Of a stretch of DNA of 60,581 bases, positions 25,222 to 34,278 are shown piece after piece; position 1 is the first letter of the stretch; the number at the start of each line of letters is the position of its first letter. The position numbers and the translations under genes were made by a program. Origin of the DNA: an uncultured Candidatus Actinomarina sp. (GTDB lineage Bacteria > Actinomycetota > Acidimicrobiia > Actinomarinales > Actinomarinaceae); contig CACJPC010000004.1 in the NCBI GenBank assembly GCA_902595195.1, positions 1 to 60,581 of the forward strand, given 5' to 3'. Under the pieces are notes generated by a model. The model worked only from the letters and a program-made list of their open reading frames with translations, did no database searches and had not been told where the DNA came from.

Positions 25222-27174
25222 ATGAATTCAAAGAAAAAAAACATCGAAGCTCAAATAGTTGAAGATTTTGAAAAGATCAGACCTGCTATTACGAGATTAC
25301 TGCAAACTCAAATGAAAAATGATGATTTATCACTTCGATACGGAAGATCAAAATCTAACAGCAAGAATGATATAGTAATTAATCCATCAATACTTGTTAA
25401 TACAATCTCAAAAACAAATCTTGATAGAGATGAGGTTATGATTGGTACTGTTGTTCACGAAGCTATACATGCAACAAATAATTACACTCTAGACTCTGAA
25501 TCTATAAACAAGTTATTTCCAGAAGAACTGGATGATGTAGAAGATATTGATGACATTCTGGAAATTCTCACAGGGCCCTTTGGAAAATATGTTTTTGATA
25601 TTCTAATTCATTCAATCGAAGAAAAAATCTTTGTTAAACAATATGAAGGTTTAAATTCTATTCTTGAAGATATTTATACTGAGTCGTTTTCTGAGATAAA
25701 AAAGCTTGGTAATTTTAGTCAGTACCTATCATTACTTTTTCACTCAATTACTTCGTATATAGATCCTGAGTTTGAAAACTATAAAAAGCCTGTAGTAAGT
25801 TCGTTAAACGAATCTTTGCATATTTTAAAAACTTTAAATTATGAAGATGTGAATGTATCTGAATTAATTGAAGCAACAGTTCAGATGGTTGATATATGTA
25901 AACGGTACAATATTCTTCCAGACTTAGACAATTACACACTTGGAGAACAAAAAGAAATTGAAGAGTCACTTGATGAAAGTGTAGTGAATGACTTAAGCAA
26001 GGTTCTTATCCCCTCCTCTAACAATGTAACAACAGGTAATACTCTGCAGAAGTTTCTTGGTCAGACTGAGTCTAAAACAACTGATGACAAATTAAATCTT
26101 ATGGATGATCATATTTCTAAAGTAGGGGCATCGACTACTATCTATTTTCCATCAGGAAATACTGCGAAAGTTGTGGAAAATAGAATACCTGATAATTTTA
26201 AAAATTTATTCAAGAATGGTATAGAAACATACGAGTCGTTATTACAACAGTGGAATTTACCTATTTATAAAGTTACAAACAAGATAAAACCCTACTTTAT
26301 ACACAACCAAAAAAGACAAAGAATTAGTGGGTTTGATCAAGGAGACTTATCTCCACATGTTCCAATCATGCTTGCCTCTGGAAGATACGAGAGAATGTTT
26401 GAGCAGAAACAGCGACTATCCAATAAGTCATATGCAATATCTCTTTTAATTGATGGAAGTGGTTCGATGATTGAAAAAAACAAAGAAGAACTTCATCCTT
26501 GGTCTCTAGCCTCAGCATTAATTGGTGCTAGTTACTTATCGCAAATATGTTTTGAACTTGATATTGATTTTGAAGTTTCTATTTTTAACAGAGCTTTTGC
26601 TTCAGAACATACTGAAAATGAAGATACTTATAATAAAAGAAAATTTGCAGTTTCTTCAATGTTAAATAGAACTTACGGTTCTTCAGCTCAGGAACTTTAC
26701 AATACCGCAAATCACTATTTTATTAAAGAATTTAAGGATTCATGGAGAGAGAACTATCAACAATTTATTGGTCTGATAGAATTTTCAAGAAATTTAAGAG
26801 ATTCAATAGATATTGGTATAAGTGAAGATTCAATTCCTCCTGTAAGCATGTTTGAAAAAGGGACTAACATCGATGAAATAAATATCATGCATGCAACAAA
26901 AAGATTGTTAAATCATCCATCGAATACAAAGATGTTAGTTGTACTTTCAGACGGTATGACTAGAGGATCATTGAATGAACTTCAAAATAGTATAAACTTT
27001 GCAACTAAAAATGGAGTCGATGTAATCGGAATAGGAATTGGCAGTAGAGGTTCGTGGAGAGAATATATTAATAATGTACAAATTGAAAAACCTGAACAAT
27101 TAATTCATTCCATAGTAAACATCACAAAGGATATACTTATAAAAAACATTAAATTAACATCTGGAGTTGCCTAA
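25222..27174 (+). CDS. CobT-like protein: N-terminal HEXXH (zincin-like) region plus C-terminal vWA domain
   Basis: VVHEAIH; SLLIDGSGSM MIDAS; KMLVVLSDG; VDVIGIGIG. Confidence 0.8.
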   Translation: MNSKKKNIEAQIVEDFEKIRPAITRLLQTQMKNDDLSLRYGRSKSNSKNDIVINPSILVNTISKTNLDRDEVMIGTVVHEAIHATNNYTLDSESINKLFPEELDDVEDIDDILEILTGPFGKYVFDILIHSIEEKIFVKQYEGLNSILEDIYTESFSEIKKLGNFSQYLSLLFHSITSYIDPEFENYKKPVVSSLNESLHILKTLNYEDVNVSELIEATVQMVDICKRYNILPDLDNYTLGEQKEIEESLDESVVNDLSKVLIPSSNNVTTGNTLQKFLGQTESKTTDDKLNLMDDHISKVGASTTIYFPSGNTAKVVENRIPDNFKNLFKNGIETYESLLQQWNLPIYKVTNKIKPYFIHNQKRQRISGFDQGDLSPHVPIMLASGRYERMFEQKQRLSNKSYAISLLIDGSGSMIEKNKEELHPWSLASALIGASYLSQICFELDIDFEVSIFNRAFASEHTENEDTYNKRKFAVSSMLNRTYGSSAQELYNTANHYFIKEFKDSWRENYQQFIGLIEFSRNLRDSIDIGISEDSIPPVSMFEKGTNIDEINIMHATKRLLNHPSNTKMLVVLSDGMTRGSLNELQNSINFATKNGVDVIGIGIGSRGSWREYINNVQIEKPEQLIHSIVNITKDILIKNIKLTSGVA

Positions 27175-28163
27175 TGGGTAAGAAAAAATTTGTAAATCCT
27201 GATAATGAGAAACAATCTGTTGAAATAGAAGAATGCATATTAGATAAAAAACTAGATGATTTTGACTCAAGAAGTAACAGAATTCCAGAAGTAGATGAAT
27301 TCTATGTAGACCTAGGAATGCAATATAGACTAGCTCAGGTTGTGAATTCAAAAAGTAAATCATTTAACAATGAAATACCTATACACATTGCACTGATGGG
27401 TCATATGGGTACAGGAAAGGATCATGATATAGAACAATTCGCAGCAAAACTTAAGTTTCCGTATTACAGAATTCCTTTATCTGGAGAGGTTAGAGACGTA
27501 ACACTTTTAGGATCTGTTCAGTTGTATGGAGATGGTAAGGGTGGGACCGAAAGTAGATGGCAAGATGGTGAATTAACAAGAGCATTGAGAGGACCAGCAA
27601 TTGTAAATTTATCAGAGCTCAATGCGGCGGGCCCTGAAGTTTTATTTGCTCTACATTCATTACTTGATAGACACAGAAAGTTAGAGCTCCCAAACGGAGA
27701 AGTGCTTTCGCTAAGAGAAGATACTTATATTTTTGGAACAATGAACCCAACTAGTTTAAGAGATTACGCAGGTACCCAGTCATTAAATAAAGCTTTTGCG
27801 GATAGGTGGGTTATATGGGATAAGCCTTTCCCAAATAAAAAACAGCTAAATACTATTTTTGAAAAAAGATATCCGAGACTTCAAAAAGAATACAGAGATT
27901 TAATAATTAAACTAGCTACAGAAATTAATAACTCATTTATGTCAGATGATATAAGTATCAATATAGAAACACCTATGAGTTTAAGAACAATTGTAGAGAG
28001 AATCCCTATAGGCTTAGATGTATATGCAGAATCATCGGACCCTCTAAAAGACACTTGGGAAAACTTTGTACTACCTCATGTTAATAAAGAAGACTTAGAT
28101 CATTACAAAACTTTATGGAACACAATAGTTAGAAAAGGGCCGTCTATAAAGCCTCAACTTTAG
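27174..28163 (+). CDS. MoxR/CobS/CbbQ-type AAA+ ATPase with atypical Walker motifs
   Basis: GHMGTGKD, WQDGELTRA, NLSELNAA, GTMNP, YAGTQSLNKAFADRW, MSLR; start overlaps the vWA gene stop. Confidence 0.85.
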   Translation: MGKKKFVNPDNEKQSVEIEECILDKKLDDFDSRSNRIPEVDEFYVDLGMQYRLAQVVNSKSKSFNNEIPIHIALMGHMGTGKDHDIEQFAAKLKFPYYRIPLSGEVRDVTLLGSVQLYGDGKGGTESRWQDGELTRALRGPAIVNLSELNAAGPEVLFALHSLLDRHRKLELPNGEVLSLREDTYIFGTMNPTSLRDYAGTQSLNKAFADRWVIWDKPFPNKKQLNTIFEKRYPRLQKEYRDLIIKLATEINNSFMSDDISINIETPMSLRTIVERIPIGLDVYAESSDPLKDTWENFVLPHVNKEDLDHYKTLWNTIVRKGPSIKPQL

Positions 28164-28921: not shown

Positions 28922-29662
28922 ATGATGCAAGAAATACTAAGTAACCTCGTCGCTGAACAGCAATTATTAGATCAATATCTTCAGAGTATTCCTGTTAGAA
29001 ATTGGAATACAAAAACTACATACAAAAATTGGGACATTACAGCACATGTTAGTTATCTTGCAGCTCTTGAAGATCTTGCTAACAATGCTCTAAAGAAAAA
29101 AGGTACTGATTTTAACAAATATAGAGGACCTAAGGGTTTAGAGAAATTTGAAAAAGAAGCAATCAAAAAAGGCAGTGATATGAGACCACAAGATGTTATT
29201 GAATGGTGGAGAATGTCTAGAGCTTCTGTTATTGAAATATTAGCTAAGTCTTCTCCTGGTAAGAAATTAACTTGGTGGAAAAATGAAATCGATTGTAGAA
29301 CGTTCGCAGTTACAAAATTAGCTGAAACATGGGCGCACAGTTTAGATGTTTATGATGCAATGAAAAAAGACTATGAAGACACTGTACGAGTTGAACATGT
29401 AGCTCTTTTTGGATGGTTAAATGCAGAACAAGCAAGTAAAGTTAATAAAGCTAAATATCAAGATCTAAGAATAGAACTAATCGGACCTGAATACAAAGCT
29501 TGGCAATTTGGAGACGAGCAAAGTGAAAACAGTATAAAAGGAAATGCAAGTGACTGGTGCAGGGTTGTCACTGGTAGGGTTCCTAAAGGTCATAAACTTA
29601 CACTTTCAACTGAAGGTGATTTTGCTAAAAAATTCCTTAAATTTGATCACGTAAAAATATAA
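28922..29662 (+). CDS. Maleylpyruvate isomerase-family (MDMPI, TIGR03084-like) protein
   Basis: LVAEQ..LD, WDITAHV, AETWAHSLDV, RIELIGP..W.FG. Confidence 0.75.
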   Translation: MMQEILSNLVAEQQLLDQYLQSIPVRNWNTKTTYKNWDITAHVSYLAALEDLANNALKKKGTDFNKYRGPKGLEKFEKEAIKKGSDMRPQDVIEWWRMSRASVIEILAKSSPGKKLTWWKNEIDCRTFAVTKLAETWAHSLDVYDAMKKDYEDTVRVEHVALFGWLNAEQASKVNKAKYQDLRIELIGPEYKAWQFGDEQSENSIKGNASDWCRVVTGRVPKGHKLTLSTEGDFAKKFLKFDHVKI

Positions 29663-30423
29663 TGAAAGTTTATGGGGTAGTTCACTTAAAAAGCCTTCCT
29701 GGCTCCCCTTCTAATAGATTGTCTATTGATGAAATTATTGACGCTGCTCAAGAGGATGTAAATAGCTTGGTTTATGGTGGTGTTGATGGAATCATAATTG
29801 AAAATTTTGGAGATACACCATTTGTAAAAAATGATATTTCTAAACGTACACTTGCAAGCTTCACTACAGTTGTAGAAAATCTATCAATAGAACGAGATAT
29901 CAAAGTTGGAATAAATGTTTTAAGAAATGACGGTTTAGCAGCTCTTGCAATTGCCGAAGCGACTAAATCTCAGTTTGTAAGAATTAATGTTTTAAATAAT
30001 ACTATGTATACCGATCAAGGCGTTATAGAAGGCGATGCTCACGAAGTTAATCAGTTTAAATCAAGCCTTAATAGCTATGTAGAAATATATGCTGATGTAT
30101 TTGTAAAACATGCTGTACCTCCTCCCGGTTCAAAAATTGAAAACCATGCAGATGAGTTGATTCATAGAGCTGGTGCAGATGTAGTGATTGTTACTGGAGA
30201 TGGGACTGGACATGAAATAAATCTTGAAGATTTACAAAAAGTAAGAAACATAGTCCCAACTGGAAAACTAGCTATTGGATCTGGGGTGACTTCAACAAAT
30301 GTTGACGCTTATCAAGATTTGGCAGACATACTGATTGTAGGTACAAGTTTTAAATTTGATAATGATGTTGCTAAAAAAGTTGACATCAACAGAGTTGAAG
30401 AGTTAGTAAGAAAAATAAAATAA
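29662..30423 (+). CDS. BtpA/SgcQ family protein
   Basis: GVVHLKSLPGSP, IENFGDTPF, GINVLRND, ADVFVKHA, IVTGDGTG. Confidence 0.92.
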   Translation: MKVYGVVHLKSLPGSPSNRLSIDEIIDAAQEDVNSLVYGGVDGIIIENFGDTPFVKNDISKRTLASFTTVVENLSIERDIKVGINVLRNDGLAALAIAEATKSQFVRINVLNNTMYTDQGVIEGDAHEVNQFKSSLNSYVEIYADVFVKHAVPPPGSKIENHADELIHRAGADVVIVTGDGTGHEINLEDLQKVRNIVPTGKLAIGSGVTSTNVDAYQDLADILIVGTSFKFDNDVAKKVDINRVEELVRKIK

Positions 30424-30473
30424 TTTTTATTACTACAATACAAATCTATTACCTAACTATCATTTTTATTTGA

Positions 30474-31412
30474 ATGGAAGCAATACTTAATCCAGCACTA
30501 CTATTATTCCTTTCAGGAATTCTGATTGGAATTTTATTTAAATTAATCCTTCCAAACTCTATTTCTAAATACTTGGGTTACTATTTACTTCTTTCGTTAG
30601 GGCTTAAAGGTGGTTCAAGCCTTCAAGAAAATGGCTTTATAAATGAAGTTATCAGTGCATTAACACTGGGTGTAGTATTTGCTCTTTTAATTCCATTTAT
30701 TGCTTATTTTTATCTTAAAAATTTACTTAATAGCGATGATGCTGCCGCACTCTCTGGCACTTATGGATCAGTAAGTGCTGTTACTTTTGTGACAGCAATT
30801 GCATATCTATCAACTACTAATCAAGAGTTTGATAACTACATGTCTGCTGTTTTGGTTGTAATGGAGTTTCCGGCAATATTTATGGCACTTTATTTAGTAA
30901 CCCATAATAAGCAAAATAAAGGGAATAATTTAGAAACTATAAAAACAGCATTTTTAGAAATACCAAATATTATTTTGATCTCATCATTGTTTATTGGATA
31001 TTTTCTAAATAAAACACTTTTATCTAATTTAGATTTCATAATTGTTGAAATATTTGATTATGTTTTGTACGTATTTTTATTTGTTATGGGAACAAGAGTT
31101 GCTAAAAGAATTGGAGAACTTAAAGGTAAAGGAGCTAGCCTTATTGCTTTTGCTTTACTCACACCATTAATGGGTTCACTCATCGCTTTACTGGCATCCC
31201 TAAACTTTAATTTTTCTGTGGGCAATGCAACATTACTTATGGTGTTAACTGCAAGTGCTAGCTATATTGCAGTACCAGCGGTTGTAAAAGATGCCATACC
31301 CAACGCAAATCCAGCTATATACCTTGGACTCAGTTTAGGTATCACATTTCCATTTAATATCATTGTTGGAATACCTTTGTATAACGAATTAGCCAAATAC
31401 TTTATTGGCTGA
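30474..31412 (+). CDS. sbtA: Sodium-dependent bicarbonate transporter, SbtA family
   Basis: LGLKGG, YGSVSAVTF, VMEFPAI, SASYIAVPA, SLGITFPFNI. Confidence 0.88.
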   Translation: MEAILNPALLLFLSGILIGILFKLILPNSISKYLGYYLLLSLGLKGGSSLQENGFINEVISALTLGVVFALLIPFIAYFYLKNLLNSDDAAALSGTYGSVSAVTFVTAIAYLSTTNQEFDNYMSAVLVVMEFPAIFMALYLVTHNKQNKGNNLETIKTAFLEIPNIILISSLFIGYFLNKTLLSNLDFIIVEIFDYVLYVFLFVMGTRVAKRIGELKGKGASLIAFALLTPLMGSLIALLASLNFNFSVGNATLLMVLTASASYIAVPAVVKDAIPNANPAIYLGLSLGITFPFNIIVGIPLYNELAKYFIG

Positions 31413-33414: not shown

Positions 33415-34278
33415 TCACATGGAAAAAAGATTTTTTCCTTCAAATTTTTTTGTACCATTCACATAGCTAAAGTACTTTCTGCATTCACAAGATTGATACT
33501 CTATGTCAATAGGATAAAACTCTCTTTTAGCTTCAGGCCAATACTCTCTTTGAAGTTCTATCATTTTAAGGCCTACATCTTGGTGGCTATTTAAATTAAG
33601 AAAATTTTGGAGCCTATCTAAATATGGTTCTGCACCAATGCCAGTTGGAACATCAGTGGTAATTGGTATAACATCTTCTCTAAACCAGGCAATATCTATC
33701 AAAGCCATAAATATTGGGAAGTCATTATTCATCCTAAATTGCTTATTTACATTGTTTGTAGCAGTAATAGCATCTCTATTAGAATTTAAAACTATTTCAG
33801 CTAACTCTTCTTTTTTTTCGTAAAATTTGTATGTGGCTGCATCTATACGGCTATACAAATTATCATTCCAATAGGAATCTTCTACTGGGTATGCTGTGAA
33901 ATTCTCCCACTGCTCTAATCCAAGAAGTCTCTCTTTTAAAGCTTCTGGATTATCTAAATCATTTATCGTTAACTGATCAATAGTTAAATCTCTGTTGCAC
34001 CACCTACTAAAAAATAAAGCTTGGATTAATGAAGGTAAGTCATCTTTTGCTGGTTCAGCAAATTTAATAATGGATTTACTTACTTTGTCATCTTCTCTAA
34101 AAACATTTAGAAAACGACCTTTTTGTAAAATTGGATCATCGCTCCAAGGATATGCTTCTCCTGACTCTCTTTTTACACGTACAGCTTCACGTCTCTTACA
34201 GTAATCAAAAAAGCTTTGTACTGGGTCCTCTATTTCAAGACCATCTAATGAGTGTGCATATGGATTCTCTAAAACCAT
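33415..34278 (-). CDS. alpha-glutamyl/putrescinyl thymine pyrophosphorylase clade 1 (aGPT-Pplase1)-like protein
   Basis: FFDYCKRRE...G...PWSDDPILQKGRFLNVFREDDKVS and DIEYQSCECRKY match this family's signature as I recall it. Confidence 0.75.
   Translation of the reverse strand: MVLENPYAHSLDGLEIEDPVQSFFDYCKRREAVRVKRESGEAYPWSDDPILQKGRFLNVFREDDKVSKSIIKFAEPAKDDLPSLIQALFFSRWCNRDLTIDQLTINDLDNPEALKERLLGLEQWENFTAYPVEDSYWNDNLYSRIDAATYKFYEKKEELAEIVLNSNRDAITATNNVNKQFRMNNDFPIFMALIDIAWFREDVIPITTDVPTGIGAEPYLDRLQNFLNLNSHQDVGLKMIELQREYWPEAKREFYPIDIEYQSCECRKYFSYVNGTKKFEGKNLFSM

Follow-up and report, generated by a model that had tools for sequence, protein, structure and literature searches.

An AAA+ ATPase of Candidatus Actinomarina with exchanged residues in its Walker A and B motifs

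A motor gene with two exchanged residues at the ATP site

The DNA examined in this study is a stretch of 60,581 nucleotides (hereafter, the window), positions 1 to 60,581 of contig CACJPC010000004.1 of assembly GCA_902595195.1, from an uncultured Candidatus Actinomarina sp.; the assembly amounts to 0.93 Mb, with a G+C content of about 32%. The window harbors two adjoining genes on the forward strand, one encoding a protein with a C-terminal VWA domain (henceforth, the adaptor) and another encoding an AAA+ ATPase of the MoxR/CobS type (henceforth, the motor). Their features are listed in Table 1. In the motor, the residue that follows the Walker A lysine (position K+1) is an aspartate, D83, and the residue that precedes the catalytic glutamate of Walker B is a serine, S147.

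Table 1. Position of the motor and adaptor genes in the window, and of their relevant motifs. ORF, open reading frame; aa, amino acids; MIDAS stands for metal ion-dependent adhesion site.
Feature	Position	Strand	Remarks
MoxR/CobS-type AAA+ ATPase gene (motor)	27174..28163	+	329 aa ORF; Pfam AAA_5, AlphaFold2 model, Foldseek, PHROGs
Walker A GHMGTGKD, residues G76-D83	27399..27422	+	K82 kept; sequence, alignments
D83 codon, gat	27420-27422	+	Asp where Ser/Thr is canonical
Walker B IVNLSE, residues I143-E148	27600..27617	+	Catalytic E148 kept; end of model strand 142-147
S147 codon, tca	27612-27614	+	Ser where Asp is canonical
E148 codon, gag	27615-27617	+	Catalytic Glu retained
N145 in Walker B	within 27600..27617	+	Takes the place of a hydrophobic residue
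Sensor-1 Asn, N191 (TMNP, 189-192)	27744..27746	+	Invariant in 40 aligned sequences; after strand 184-190; equivalent to CobS N186
Arg finger, R211 (ADRW, 209-212)	27804..27806	+	Invariant in 40 aligned sequences; equivalent to CobS R210
Sensor-2 Arg, R271 (SLRT, 269-272)	27984..27986	+	Kept in >=90% of the 40 aligned sequences; equivalent to CobS R271
Adaptor gene	25222..27174	+	650 aa; helical N-domain with HExxH, disordered linker, C-terminal VWA; ORF, Pfam, AlphaFold2
HExxH of adaptor (H79 E80 A I H83)	25456..25470	+	On helix 69-84 of model
MIDAS DxSxS of VWA domain (D411 G S413 G S415)	26452..26466	+	Invariant in 22 adaptors
TAATG junction	27172..27176	+	Final base of the adaptor stop TAA is the first of the motor ATG; sequence
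ggag ahead of the ATPase start	27163-27166	+	Eight bases upstream; sequence

A first-pass annotation, made from the letters of the window, had described these motifs as GHMGTGKD and AIVNLSE within positions 27399-27620, an interval that runs from G76 to L149. The exchange is confirmed at this location by translation, by HMMER and MAFFT alignment and by the parallel with the CobS site. In the HMMER alignment to midasin AAA domains, D83 falls on the T of GKT and S147 on the D of LDELN. In the MAFFT alignment, the column of D83 contains T in 16 out of 16 canonical single-domain relatives, and that of S147 contains D in 13 of them and E in the other 3. The canonical signature of the MoxR/AAA_5 group, GK[ST] plus hhhhD (where h is a hydrophobic residue), is therefore absent from the motor, which reads GKD and NLSE instead. 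The same genome encodes five other AAA+ P-loops, detected by an AAA_5 search of the assembly, and all of them present GKT followed by a hydrophobic strand that ends in DE.

The rest of the catalytic apparatus is in place. K82, E148, N191 and R211 are invariant in the 40 aligned sequences, and R271 shows at least 90% conservation; hence, the catalytic Glu, the sensor-1 TMNP and the Arg finger ADRW are intact, as the first-pass annotation held.

Family and fold of the motor

The motor matches Pfam AAA_5 with 59.1 bits (cut-off 22; expect value, E, 6.3e-16), and scores 61.9 bits against the CobS equivalog TIGR01650, whose cut-off is 558.55. No match to Sigma54_activat (PF00158) was detected in the motor at E <=0.01 in the Pfam search. 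Its best single-domain sequence matches in the PDB are CobS (3e-16), CbbQ and NorQ, and its best phage-family match is phrog_249 (1.9e-27), annotated as 'porphyrin biosynthesis'.

An AlphaFold2 model built upon a 40-row alignment has a mean predicted local distance difference test score (pLDDT) of 90.8 and a predicted template modelling score of 0.88. Its strands include beta1 (71-75) and those of Walker B (142-147) and sensor 1 (184-190); a helix (82-93), a helix-2 insert hairpin (113-119/125-131) and a pre-sensor-1 hairpin (169-171/177-179) are also present. The top Foldseek matches of the model are NorQ 9qh6_B (E 3.7e-16) and CbbQ (5e-16), represented by 6l1q_A and 5c3c_A. Altogether, the AAA_5 score, the catalytic residues, the NorQ/CbbQ-like fold and the adjoining VWA partner place the motor in the MoxR/AAA_5 group.

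Conservation of the exchanged pair

Orthologues of the motor were found in 23 of 24 genomes sampled within the genus and in 4 of 16 genomes of other genera of the same class, with 57-60% identity in the latter. A scan of one genome per species yielded 500 stretches that encode a relative, and 80 of them were kept. One of the two patterns used in the scan starts at D83 and is biased towards Asp carriers; the other, GHMGTGK, lacks such bias. The titles of the 80 stretches correspond to Candidatus Actinomarina, the OCS155 cluster and metagenome-assembled genomes (MAGs) of Acidimicrobiia, plus one Kiloniellales MAG and one 'bacterium'. The MAG labelled Kiloniellales (Alphaproteobacteria; L082) encodes an ATPase that is 60% identical to that of the window and typical of Acidimicrobiia, and the label is probably due to a binning error.

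The window copy, 9 same-genus loci, the 4 class-level loci and the 80 scan loci make a set of 94 (L001-L094), in which some species may be present in two collections. GKDHD and NLSELN are found in 94 of the 94 loci (93 by regular expression; L083 was added by tblastn). The codons, in turn, vary. Over 93 loci, D83 is encoded by GAT (61) or GAC (32), and S147 by TCA (36), TCG (23), TCT (19), TCC (13), AGT (1) or AGC (1). Among the best 120 metagenome clusters, S147-E148 is present in all 120 and D83 in 119. The sole exception for D83 is P0113, a singleton 82% identical to the window protein that reads GKH and keeps NLSE; either a sequencing error or a rare variant may explain it.

Selection was examined by the Nei-Gojobori method, comparing the window gene with 19 close Actinomarina loci. 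The ratio of non-synonymous to synonymous substitution rates (dN/dS) is about 0.03 for the whole gene, with a range of 0.024-0.144, and 0-0.016 for the ATPase core (residues 66-216) in the 16 pairs with finite dS >=0.6; of the remaining core pairs, one is near-identical (0.07) and two are saturated. Over 18 orthologues that share about 60% identity, the value is 76% in the core, 38% in the N-terminus and 50% in the C-terminus. Because both residues are invariant while their codons vary synonymously, and because core dN/dS lies far below 0.1, the change is not decay: the site of the motor is kept by purifying selection, which upholds the view taken in the first-pass annotation.

Contigs from four RNA-labelled runs, belonging to four studies of marine or salt-marsh samples, cover both genes including the motif region. 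Some of the pieces span 27270-27741, 27159-27876 and, across the gene junction, 26797-27546. The differences listed for these contigs spare codons 83 and 147, and 173 further differences lie outside the listing.

A single origin from canonical relatives

When 1.84 billion cluster representatives were searched, 4015 hits were obtained. The best 150, which are the ones considered here, are mostly multi-domain midasins, and single-domain relatives below about 105 bits lie beyond them. One full-length representative of the subfamily (P0121, 57%) is found among these 150, plus fragments and chimeras, followed by midasins. The nearest single-domain outsider in the same 150 is P0239 (107.9 bits), with canonical GTGKT and ILDELN. 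A search with P0239 retrieved 21 proteins, all with T after the lysine; Walker B reads EE in four of them and DE in the others. A small sister group of the subfamily was also detected in metagenomes (P0273-P0276), and combines GKT with a Walker B LLLEEMN in which Glu replaces Asp.

Relatives of the P0239 group are also found on viral contigs: 161 were detected and 80 were kept (L102-L181), with one of the two patterns used requiring [DE]E. The states at K+1 and Walker B in these 80 loci are T and DE (76), N and DE (2), S and DE (1), and S and EE (1). The two viral CobS-like ATPases with Asn after the Walker A lysine and a normal DE represent another natural departure from GK[ST]. In 61 of the 80 viral loci, one ORF carries HExxH and, further on, a MIDAS motif. 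Among the 30 viral rows listed, 24 have a VWA ORF that starts after the motor on the same strand, so that the order is motor, then adaptor.

All stored proteins were surveyed with a hidden Markov model, which yielded 1242 domain hits, partial in many cases. Outside the subfamily, none of these hits has Asp after the lysine, and Ser at the Walker B position was found in only three domains, all of which lack the catalytic Glu. Intermediates (either GKD with DE, or GK[ST] with SE and the Glu retained) were found neither in the best 150 hits nor in the 1242 domain hits nor in the 80 viral loci.

A quick maximum-likelihood analysis of 121 core domains was run, using the Shimodaira-Hasegawa-like approximate likelihood ratio test (SH-aLRT) as the sole support measure and a long-branch outgroup. 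The 24 subfamily rows form one clade (SH-aLRT 100), with short internal branches and a stem that measures 1.76 changes per column. This clade is nested in another of 55 rows (support 95), which also includes 19 viral and 12 other canonical rows. With the carriers gathered in one long-stemmed clade that lies amid canonical GKT/DE relatives, the tree indicates that the swap arose once, from a GKT/DE ancestor belonging to the phage-type CobS/CobT-like group.

The branch that carries the swap carries other changes as well. Compared with the 16 canonical relatives, the subfamily has fixed M78 (T in the relatives), D85 (L/A/I), E87 (R), T110 (D/E), N145 (V/L/I) and N252 (R in 15 of 16), and has acquired the insertion G123-T125; none of the six substituted residues is seen in the 16 relatives. 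Because all these changes were fixed on the same branch as the swap, the site has been remodelled beyond a two-residue exchange.

These observations bear on three proposals of the first-pass annotation. The suspicion that the motor might mark an undescribed AAA+ subfamily is borne out, as the subfamily is monophyletic and the literature search returned no description of it. The idea of a reciprocal exchange is right in that both identities are swapped, and needs amendment in that the exchange is not a clean two-residue change. As for the co-variation of GKD with SE, which had been suggested as a check on the proposal that the exchange is compensatory, the two motifs do occur together in every locus of the set and without intermediates; since the swap arose once, however, their joint occurrence is a single event and the co-variation has no statistical weight.

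The adaptor gene

The two genes meet at a one-base overlap preceded by a ggag sequence (Table 1), and the ATPase gene is translationally coupled to the adaptor gene. An ORF resembling the adaptor is found upstream of the ATPase in 75 of the 80 scan loci and in the four class-level loci.

The C-terminus of the adaptor matches Pfam VWA (3.3e-5) and CobT_C (1e-4), barely above threshold. Its MIDAS residues D411, S413 and S415 are unchanged in 22 aligned orthologues; the MIDAS is defined as DxSxS-T-D in PMC13036017. The same 22 orthologues keep H79, E80, H83 and E134, which make an HExxH...E pattern. The HExxH region of the N-domain does not match the SprT-like Pfam family significantly (E 0.055), and the nearest ESM Atlas clusters of this domain are viral. 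Matches to phage families are CobT-like: phrog_17276 (2.4e-9) and phrog_5298 (8.4e-7). The AlphaFold2 model of the adaptor has a pLDDT of 76.5, with a linker at about 351-400 (pLDDT <50) and a VWA domain at 404-646. The top structural match of the latter is the VWA domain of NorD bound to NorQ (9qh6_G, E 6e-7).

Genomic context

The neighbours of the pair in the window are housekeeping genes: dapB, dapA, ftsK, an ABC transporter gene and an F420H2-quinone-reductase-like gene. No consistent client gene was found among the neighbours of the pair in the window and in four distant genomes. In three of the four (L012, L013 and L014), a gene of the LOG/lysine-decarboxylase family (PF03641 plus SLOG cluster 4) lies directly after the ATPase gene, an arrangement absent from the window. 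An M16 peptidase gene is located upstream of the pair in two of these distant genomes, and does not lie beside the pair in the window.

Two roles were considered and rejected. CobN (PF02514) was not found in the genome of the window, which is 79% complete, nor in five carriers that are 87, 87, 90, 99 and 100% complete; in a control search of 14 reference genomes, 5 gave a hit. The failure to find CobN, together with a TIGR01650 score far below the cut-off, led us to reject a role in cobaltochelatase or cobalamin synthesis. The possibility that the pair is a defence system was also dismissed, as neither the motor nor the adaptor has a PADLOC match.

Two further loci of the window deserve mention. 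A 287-aa ORF on the reverse strand (33415-34278) matches, at residues 20-72, the helical domain of 5-hmdU DNA kinase (PF18723, E 7.1e-18); this family is linked to phage DNA hypermodification and is unexpected in a streamlined chromosome. On the forward strand (29662-31412), a BtpA-family gene precedes one that belongs to the Sbt_1 Na+-dependent bicarbonate transporter superfamily.

Interpretation of the altered site

According to PMC9599734, a hydrogen bond joins the Walker A Ser/Thr to the Walker B Asp at the Mg site, as assumed in the first-pass annotation, and these two are the only strictly conserved proton-capable residues of both motifs. As known exceptions, the same paper cites Gly, which occurs in nucleotide monophosphate kinases, and, at Walker B, Glu. 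Our searches of proteins and literature found no precedent for a Walker B Asp-to-Ser change with the catalytic Glu kept; nor did we find in the literature a description of the motif pair or of the ATPase of this lineage. Further exceptions at K+1, Asp possibly among them, may be listed in Figure S7 of PMC9599734.

There is a precedent for an acidic residue at K+1, as sigma-54 activators have GKE with a normal Walker B DE. In PspF, Walker A reads GxxxxGKE and E43 is conserved across sigma-54 activators (PMC3419264); CbrB, in turn, reads GESGTGKE with LFLDE (PMC8871633). Table 1 of PMC3419264 gives ATPase rates of 39.51 min-1 for wild-type PspF, 22.26 min-1 for E43D at unchanged Km (around 56% of Vmax) and 1.37 min-1 for E43A. 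Because PspF E43D is active, an Asp after the lysine is compatible with hydrolysis in an AAA+ fold. Known elements are, in sum, the MoxR/CobS-type motor and the acidic K+1 residue of sigma-54 activators; what is new, at the level of sequence, is a reversed Mg-site pair in a protein that keeps the catalytic Glu.

The interpretation that we favor, if by a modest measure, is that the motor may be a working MoxR/CobS-type AAA+ machine with a rewired Mg-ATP site, in which activity is deduced from the retained catalytic residues. The carboxylate that usually ends the Walker B strand would now come right after the P-loop lysine, as D83, and the hydroxyl would have made the opposite move, to S147; one carboxylate and one hydroxyl would still flank the metal after the swap. 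By homology, D83 may be a direct ligand of the divalent ion, Mg2+, and S147 may form a hydrogen bond with D83 or with a metal-bound water. E148 would activate water, N191 and R271 would sense the gamma-phosphate, and R211 would act in trans within a hexamer, as in CobS and NorQ. A plausible order of events is that Thr was replaced by Asp first, a step that PspF suggests to be viable, and that the Walker B Asp was replaced by Ser afterwards. The hexamer would engage the VWA domain of the adaptor, and both proteins might remodel a client, possibly for metal insertion, if the likeness to NorQ/NorD and CobS/CobT extends to function. In evolutionary terms, the pair would be a vertically inherited Acidimicrobiia offshoot of a phage-type CobS/CobT-like two-gene module.

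Several considerations weigh against this interpretation. Activity and the contact between D83 and S147 are deduced for every member of the subfamily. In the model of PMC9599734, the Ser/Thr alkoxide has a proton-relay role as Mg ligand, and a reversed pair may fail to perform it. The Walker B mutant D107A of PspF is near-dead, with 0.23 min-1 (PMC3419264). Clustered in the same region are another six changes specific to the subfamily, so that the site may act differently rather than alike. Finally, the contigs from RNA-labelled runs favor transcription of both genes only weakly, as the observation is made at contig level and DNA carry-over may contribute to it.

The clustering of changes admits another explanation, possible if unlikely: that the swap, together with D85, E87, N145 and N252, has changed metal preference, nucleotide affinity or hydrolysis rate, giving rise to a slow or metal-gated switch. 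M78, D85, E87, T110, N145, N252 and the insertion G123-T125 are invariant in the subfamily and foreign to the 16 canonical relatives; the surroundings of helix 1 are more acidic, with a D-H-D run after the lysine; and a very long stem followed by near-stasis agrees with a change of function. Metal delivery has been reported for related MoxR/VWA systems (PMC13036017). However, the histidine of that run, H84, is shared at the same position with two canonical relatives (P0278 and P0279), and the shift in Vmax caused by PspF E43D is only about two-fold, which suggests that Asp suits ordinary Mg-ATP chemistry. A bolder and rather unlikely extension is that the swap and the same four residues form a metal-selective or metal-gated centre, in which hydrolysis would require, or signal, some divalent ion different from Mg2+, and would couple the motor cycle to a metal delivered by the adaptor. 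At the least, the subfamily would be the first natural P-loop ATPase with a reversed hydroxyl and carboxylate and persisting catalysis.

It seems improbable that the motor is a pseudo-ATPase, that is, a dead nucleotide-binding or structural AAA+ subunit that scaffolds the VWA adaptor. The replacement of both residues called indispensable in P-loop NTPases (PMC9599734) would fit such a loss, as would the inactivity of PspF D107A (PMC3419264), and motor activity in the subfamily is itself a deduction. Yet E148, N191, R211 and R271, which serve hydrolysis rather than binding, are retained family-wide, and the ATPase core shows the lowest dN/dS in the gene. Furthermore, among the related domains surveyed, a Walker B Ser occurs outside the subfamily only in the three domains that also lost the catalytic Glu, while the motor keeps it.

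A very improbable alternative is that D83 and S147 are unrelated events which share a long branch without physical coupling: the single origin deprives their co-occurrence of statistical weight, sigma-54 activators combine an acidic K+1 with an unchanged Walker B, and two of the 80 viral relatives have Asn at K+1 with a normal DE, but the two positions are hydrogen-bonded neighbours at the metal in solved P-loop sites (PMC9599734), no other domain surveyed has lost the Walker B Asp while keeping the catalytic Glu, and the pair retains its net charge.

If the motor is a working machine with a rewired site, its interest lies in that each of the two partners has taken the identity of the other and the remaining catalytic elements all stay, thus providing a natural test of the roles of two near-universal residues. 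Strong purifying selection maintains the swapped state across at least several hundred species, abundant ocean bacteria among them. Should the enzyme be active, comparison with revertants would tell whether the pair works in either orientation and whether the hydroxyl must ligate the metal; a reversed pair with persisting catalysis would also be a direct test of the Ser/Thr-Asp proton-relay model (PMC9599734). Independently of its chemistry, the locus flags an orphan CobS/CobT-like motor in the genome-streamlined marine Actinomarina.

Comparison with known systems

Likenesses and differences with characterized systems can be summarized as follows:

(i). Sigma-54 activators (bacterial enhancer-binding proteins, AAA+ clade 6), such as PspF and CbrB, have a natural acidic K+1 residue (GKE) that is needed for ATPase activity, and E43D is active. 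Unlike in the motor, the residue is Glu rather than Asp and Walker B stays DE, with D107A being inactive. Clade, function and partners also differ from those of the motor.

(ii). NorQ and CbbQ, from the NorQ/NorD and CbbQ/CbbO systems, are the closest solved folds of the motor, with template modelling scores of 0.81-0.84 for NorQ (target-normalised) and 0.85 for CbbQ; sequence identity is, however, only 20-23%. NorQ has a canonical Walker B, as indicated by its E109Q mutant (PMC13036017). The VWA domain of NorD (PDB series 9qh4-9qhg) is the closest solved fold of the adaptor VWA domain, and NorD has the same layout as the adaptor, made of N-domain, flexible linker and VWA/MIDAS (PMC13036017), a comparison that leaves HExxH aside. 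As described in PMC13036017, a finger of the NorD VWA domain enters the NorQ pore, and NorQ twists and stretches the linker to remodel the client. Neither norB nor norC is present among the annotated flanking genes of the pair, and no search aimed at nitric oxide reductase genes was made.

(iii). CobS and CobT, motor and adaptor of the aerobic cobaltochelatase CobNST (PDB 9ujv series), resemble the pair. CobS is likewise an AAA_5 motor of about 330 aa and the best single-domain PDB sequence match (3e-16) of the motor, and the partner of the motor has a CobT_C-like VWA domain, as CobT does. The CobS site consists of Walker A G71-S78, Walker B D141-E142, sensor 1 N186, R finger R210 and sensor 2 R271 (bioRxiv 10.64898/2026.07.21.739949), and maps one-to-one on G76-D83, S147-E148, N191, R211 and R271 of the motor. 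Differences include the exchange of the K+1 and Walker B residues relative to S78 and D141 of CobS, and the gene order, which is adaptor and then motor in the window.

(iv). Phage-type CobS/CobT-like modules share with the pair the match of the motor to phrog_249, the CobT-like PHROG matches of the adaptor and the nesting of the subfamily among viral sequences. Viral motors are, however, canonical, and in the rows listed they precede the adaptor, while in the window the adaptor comes first. Furthermore, the pair of the window is not carried on a viral genome: it is chromosomal, and inherited within Acidimicrobiia.

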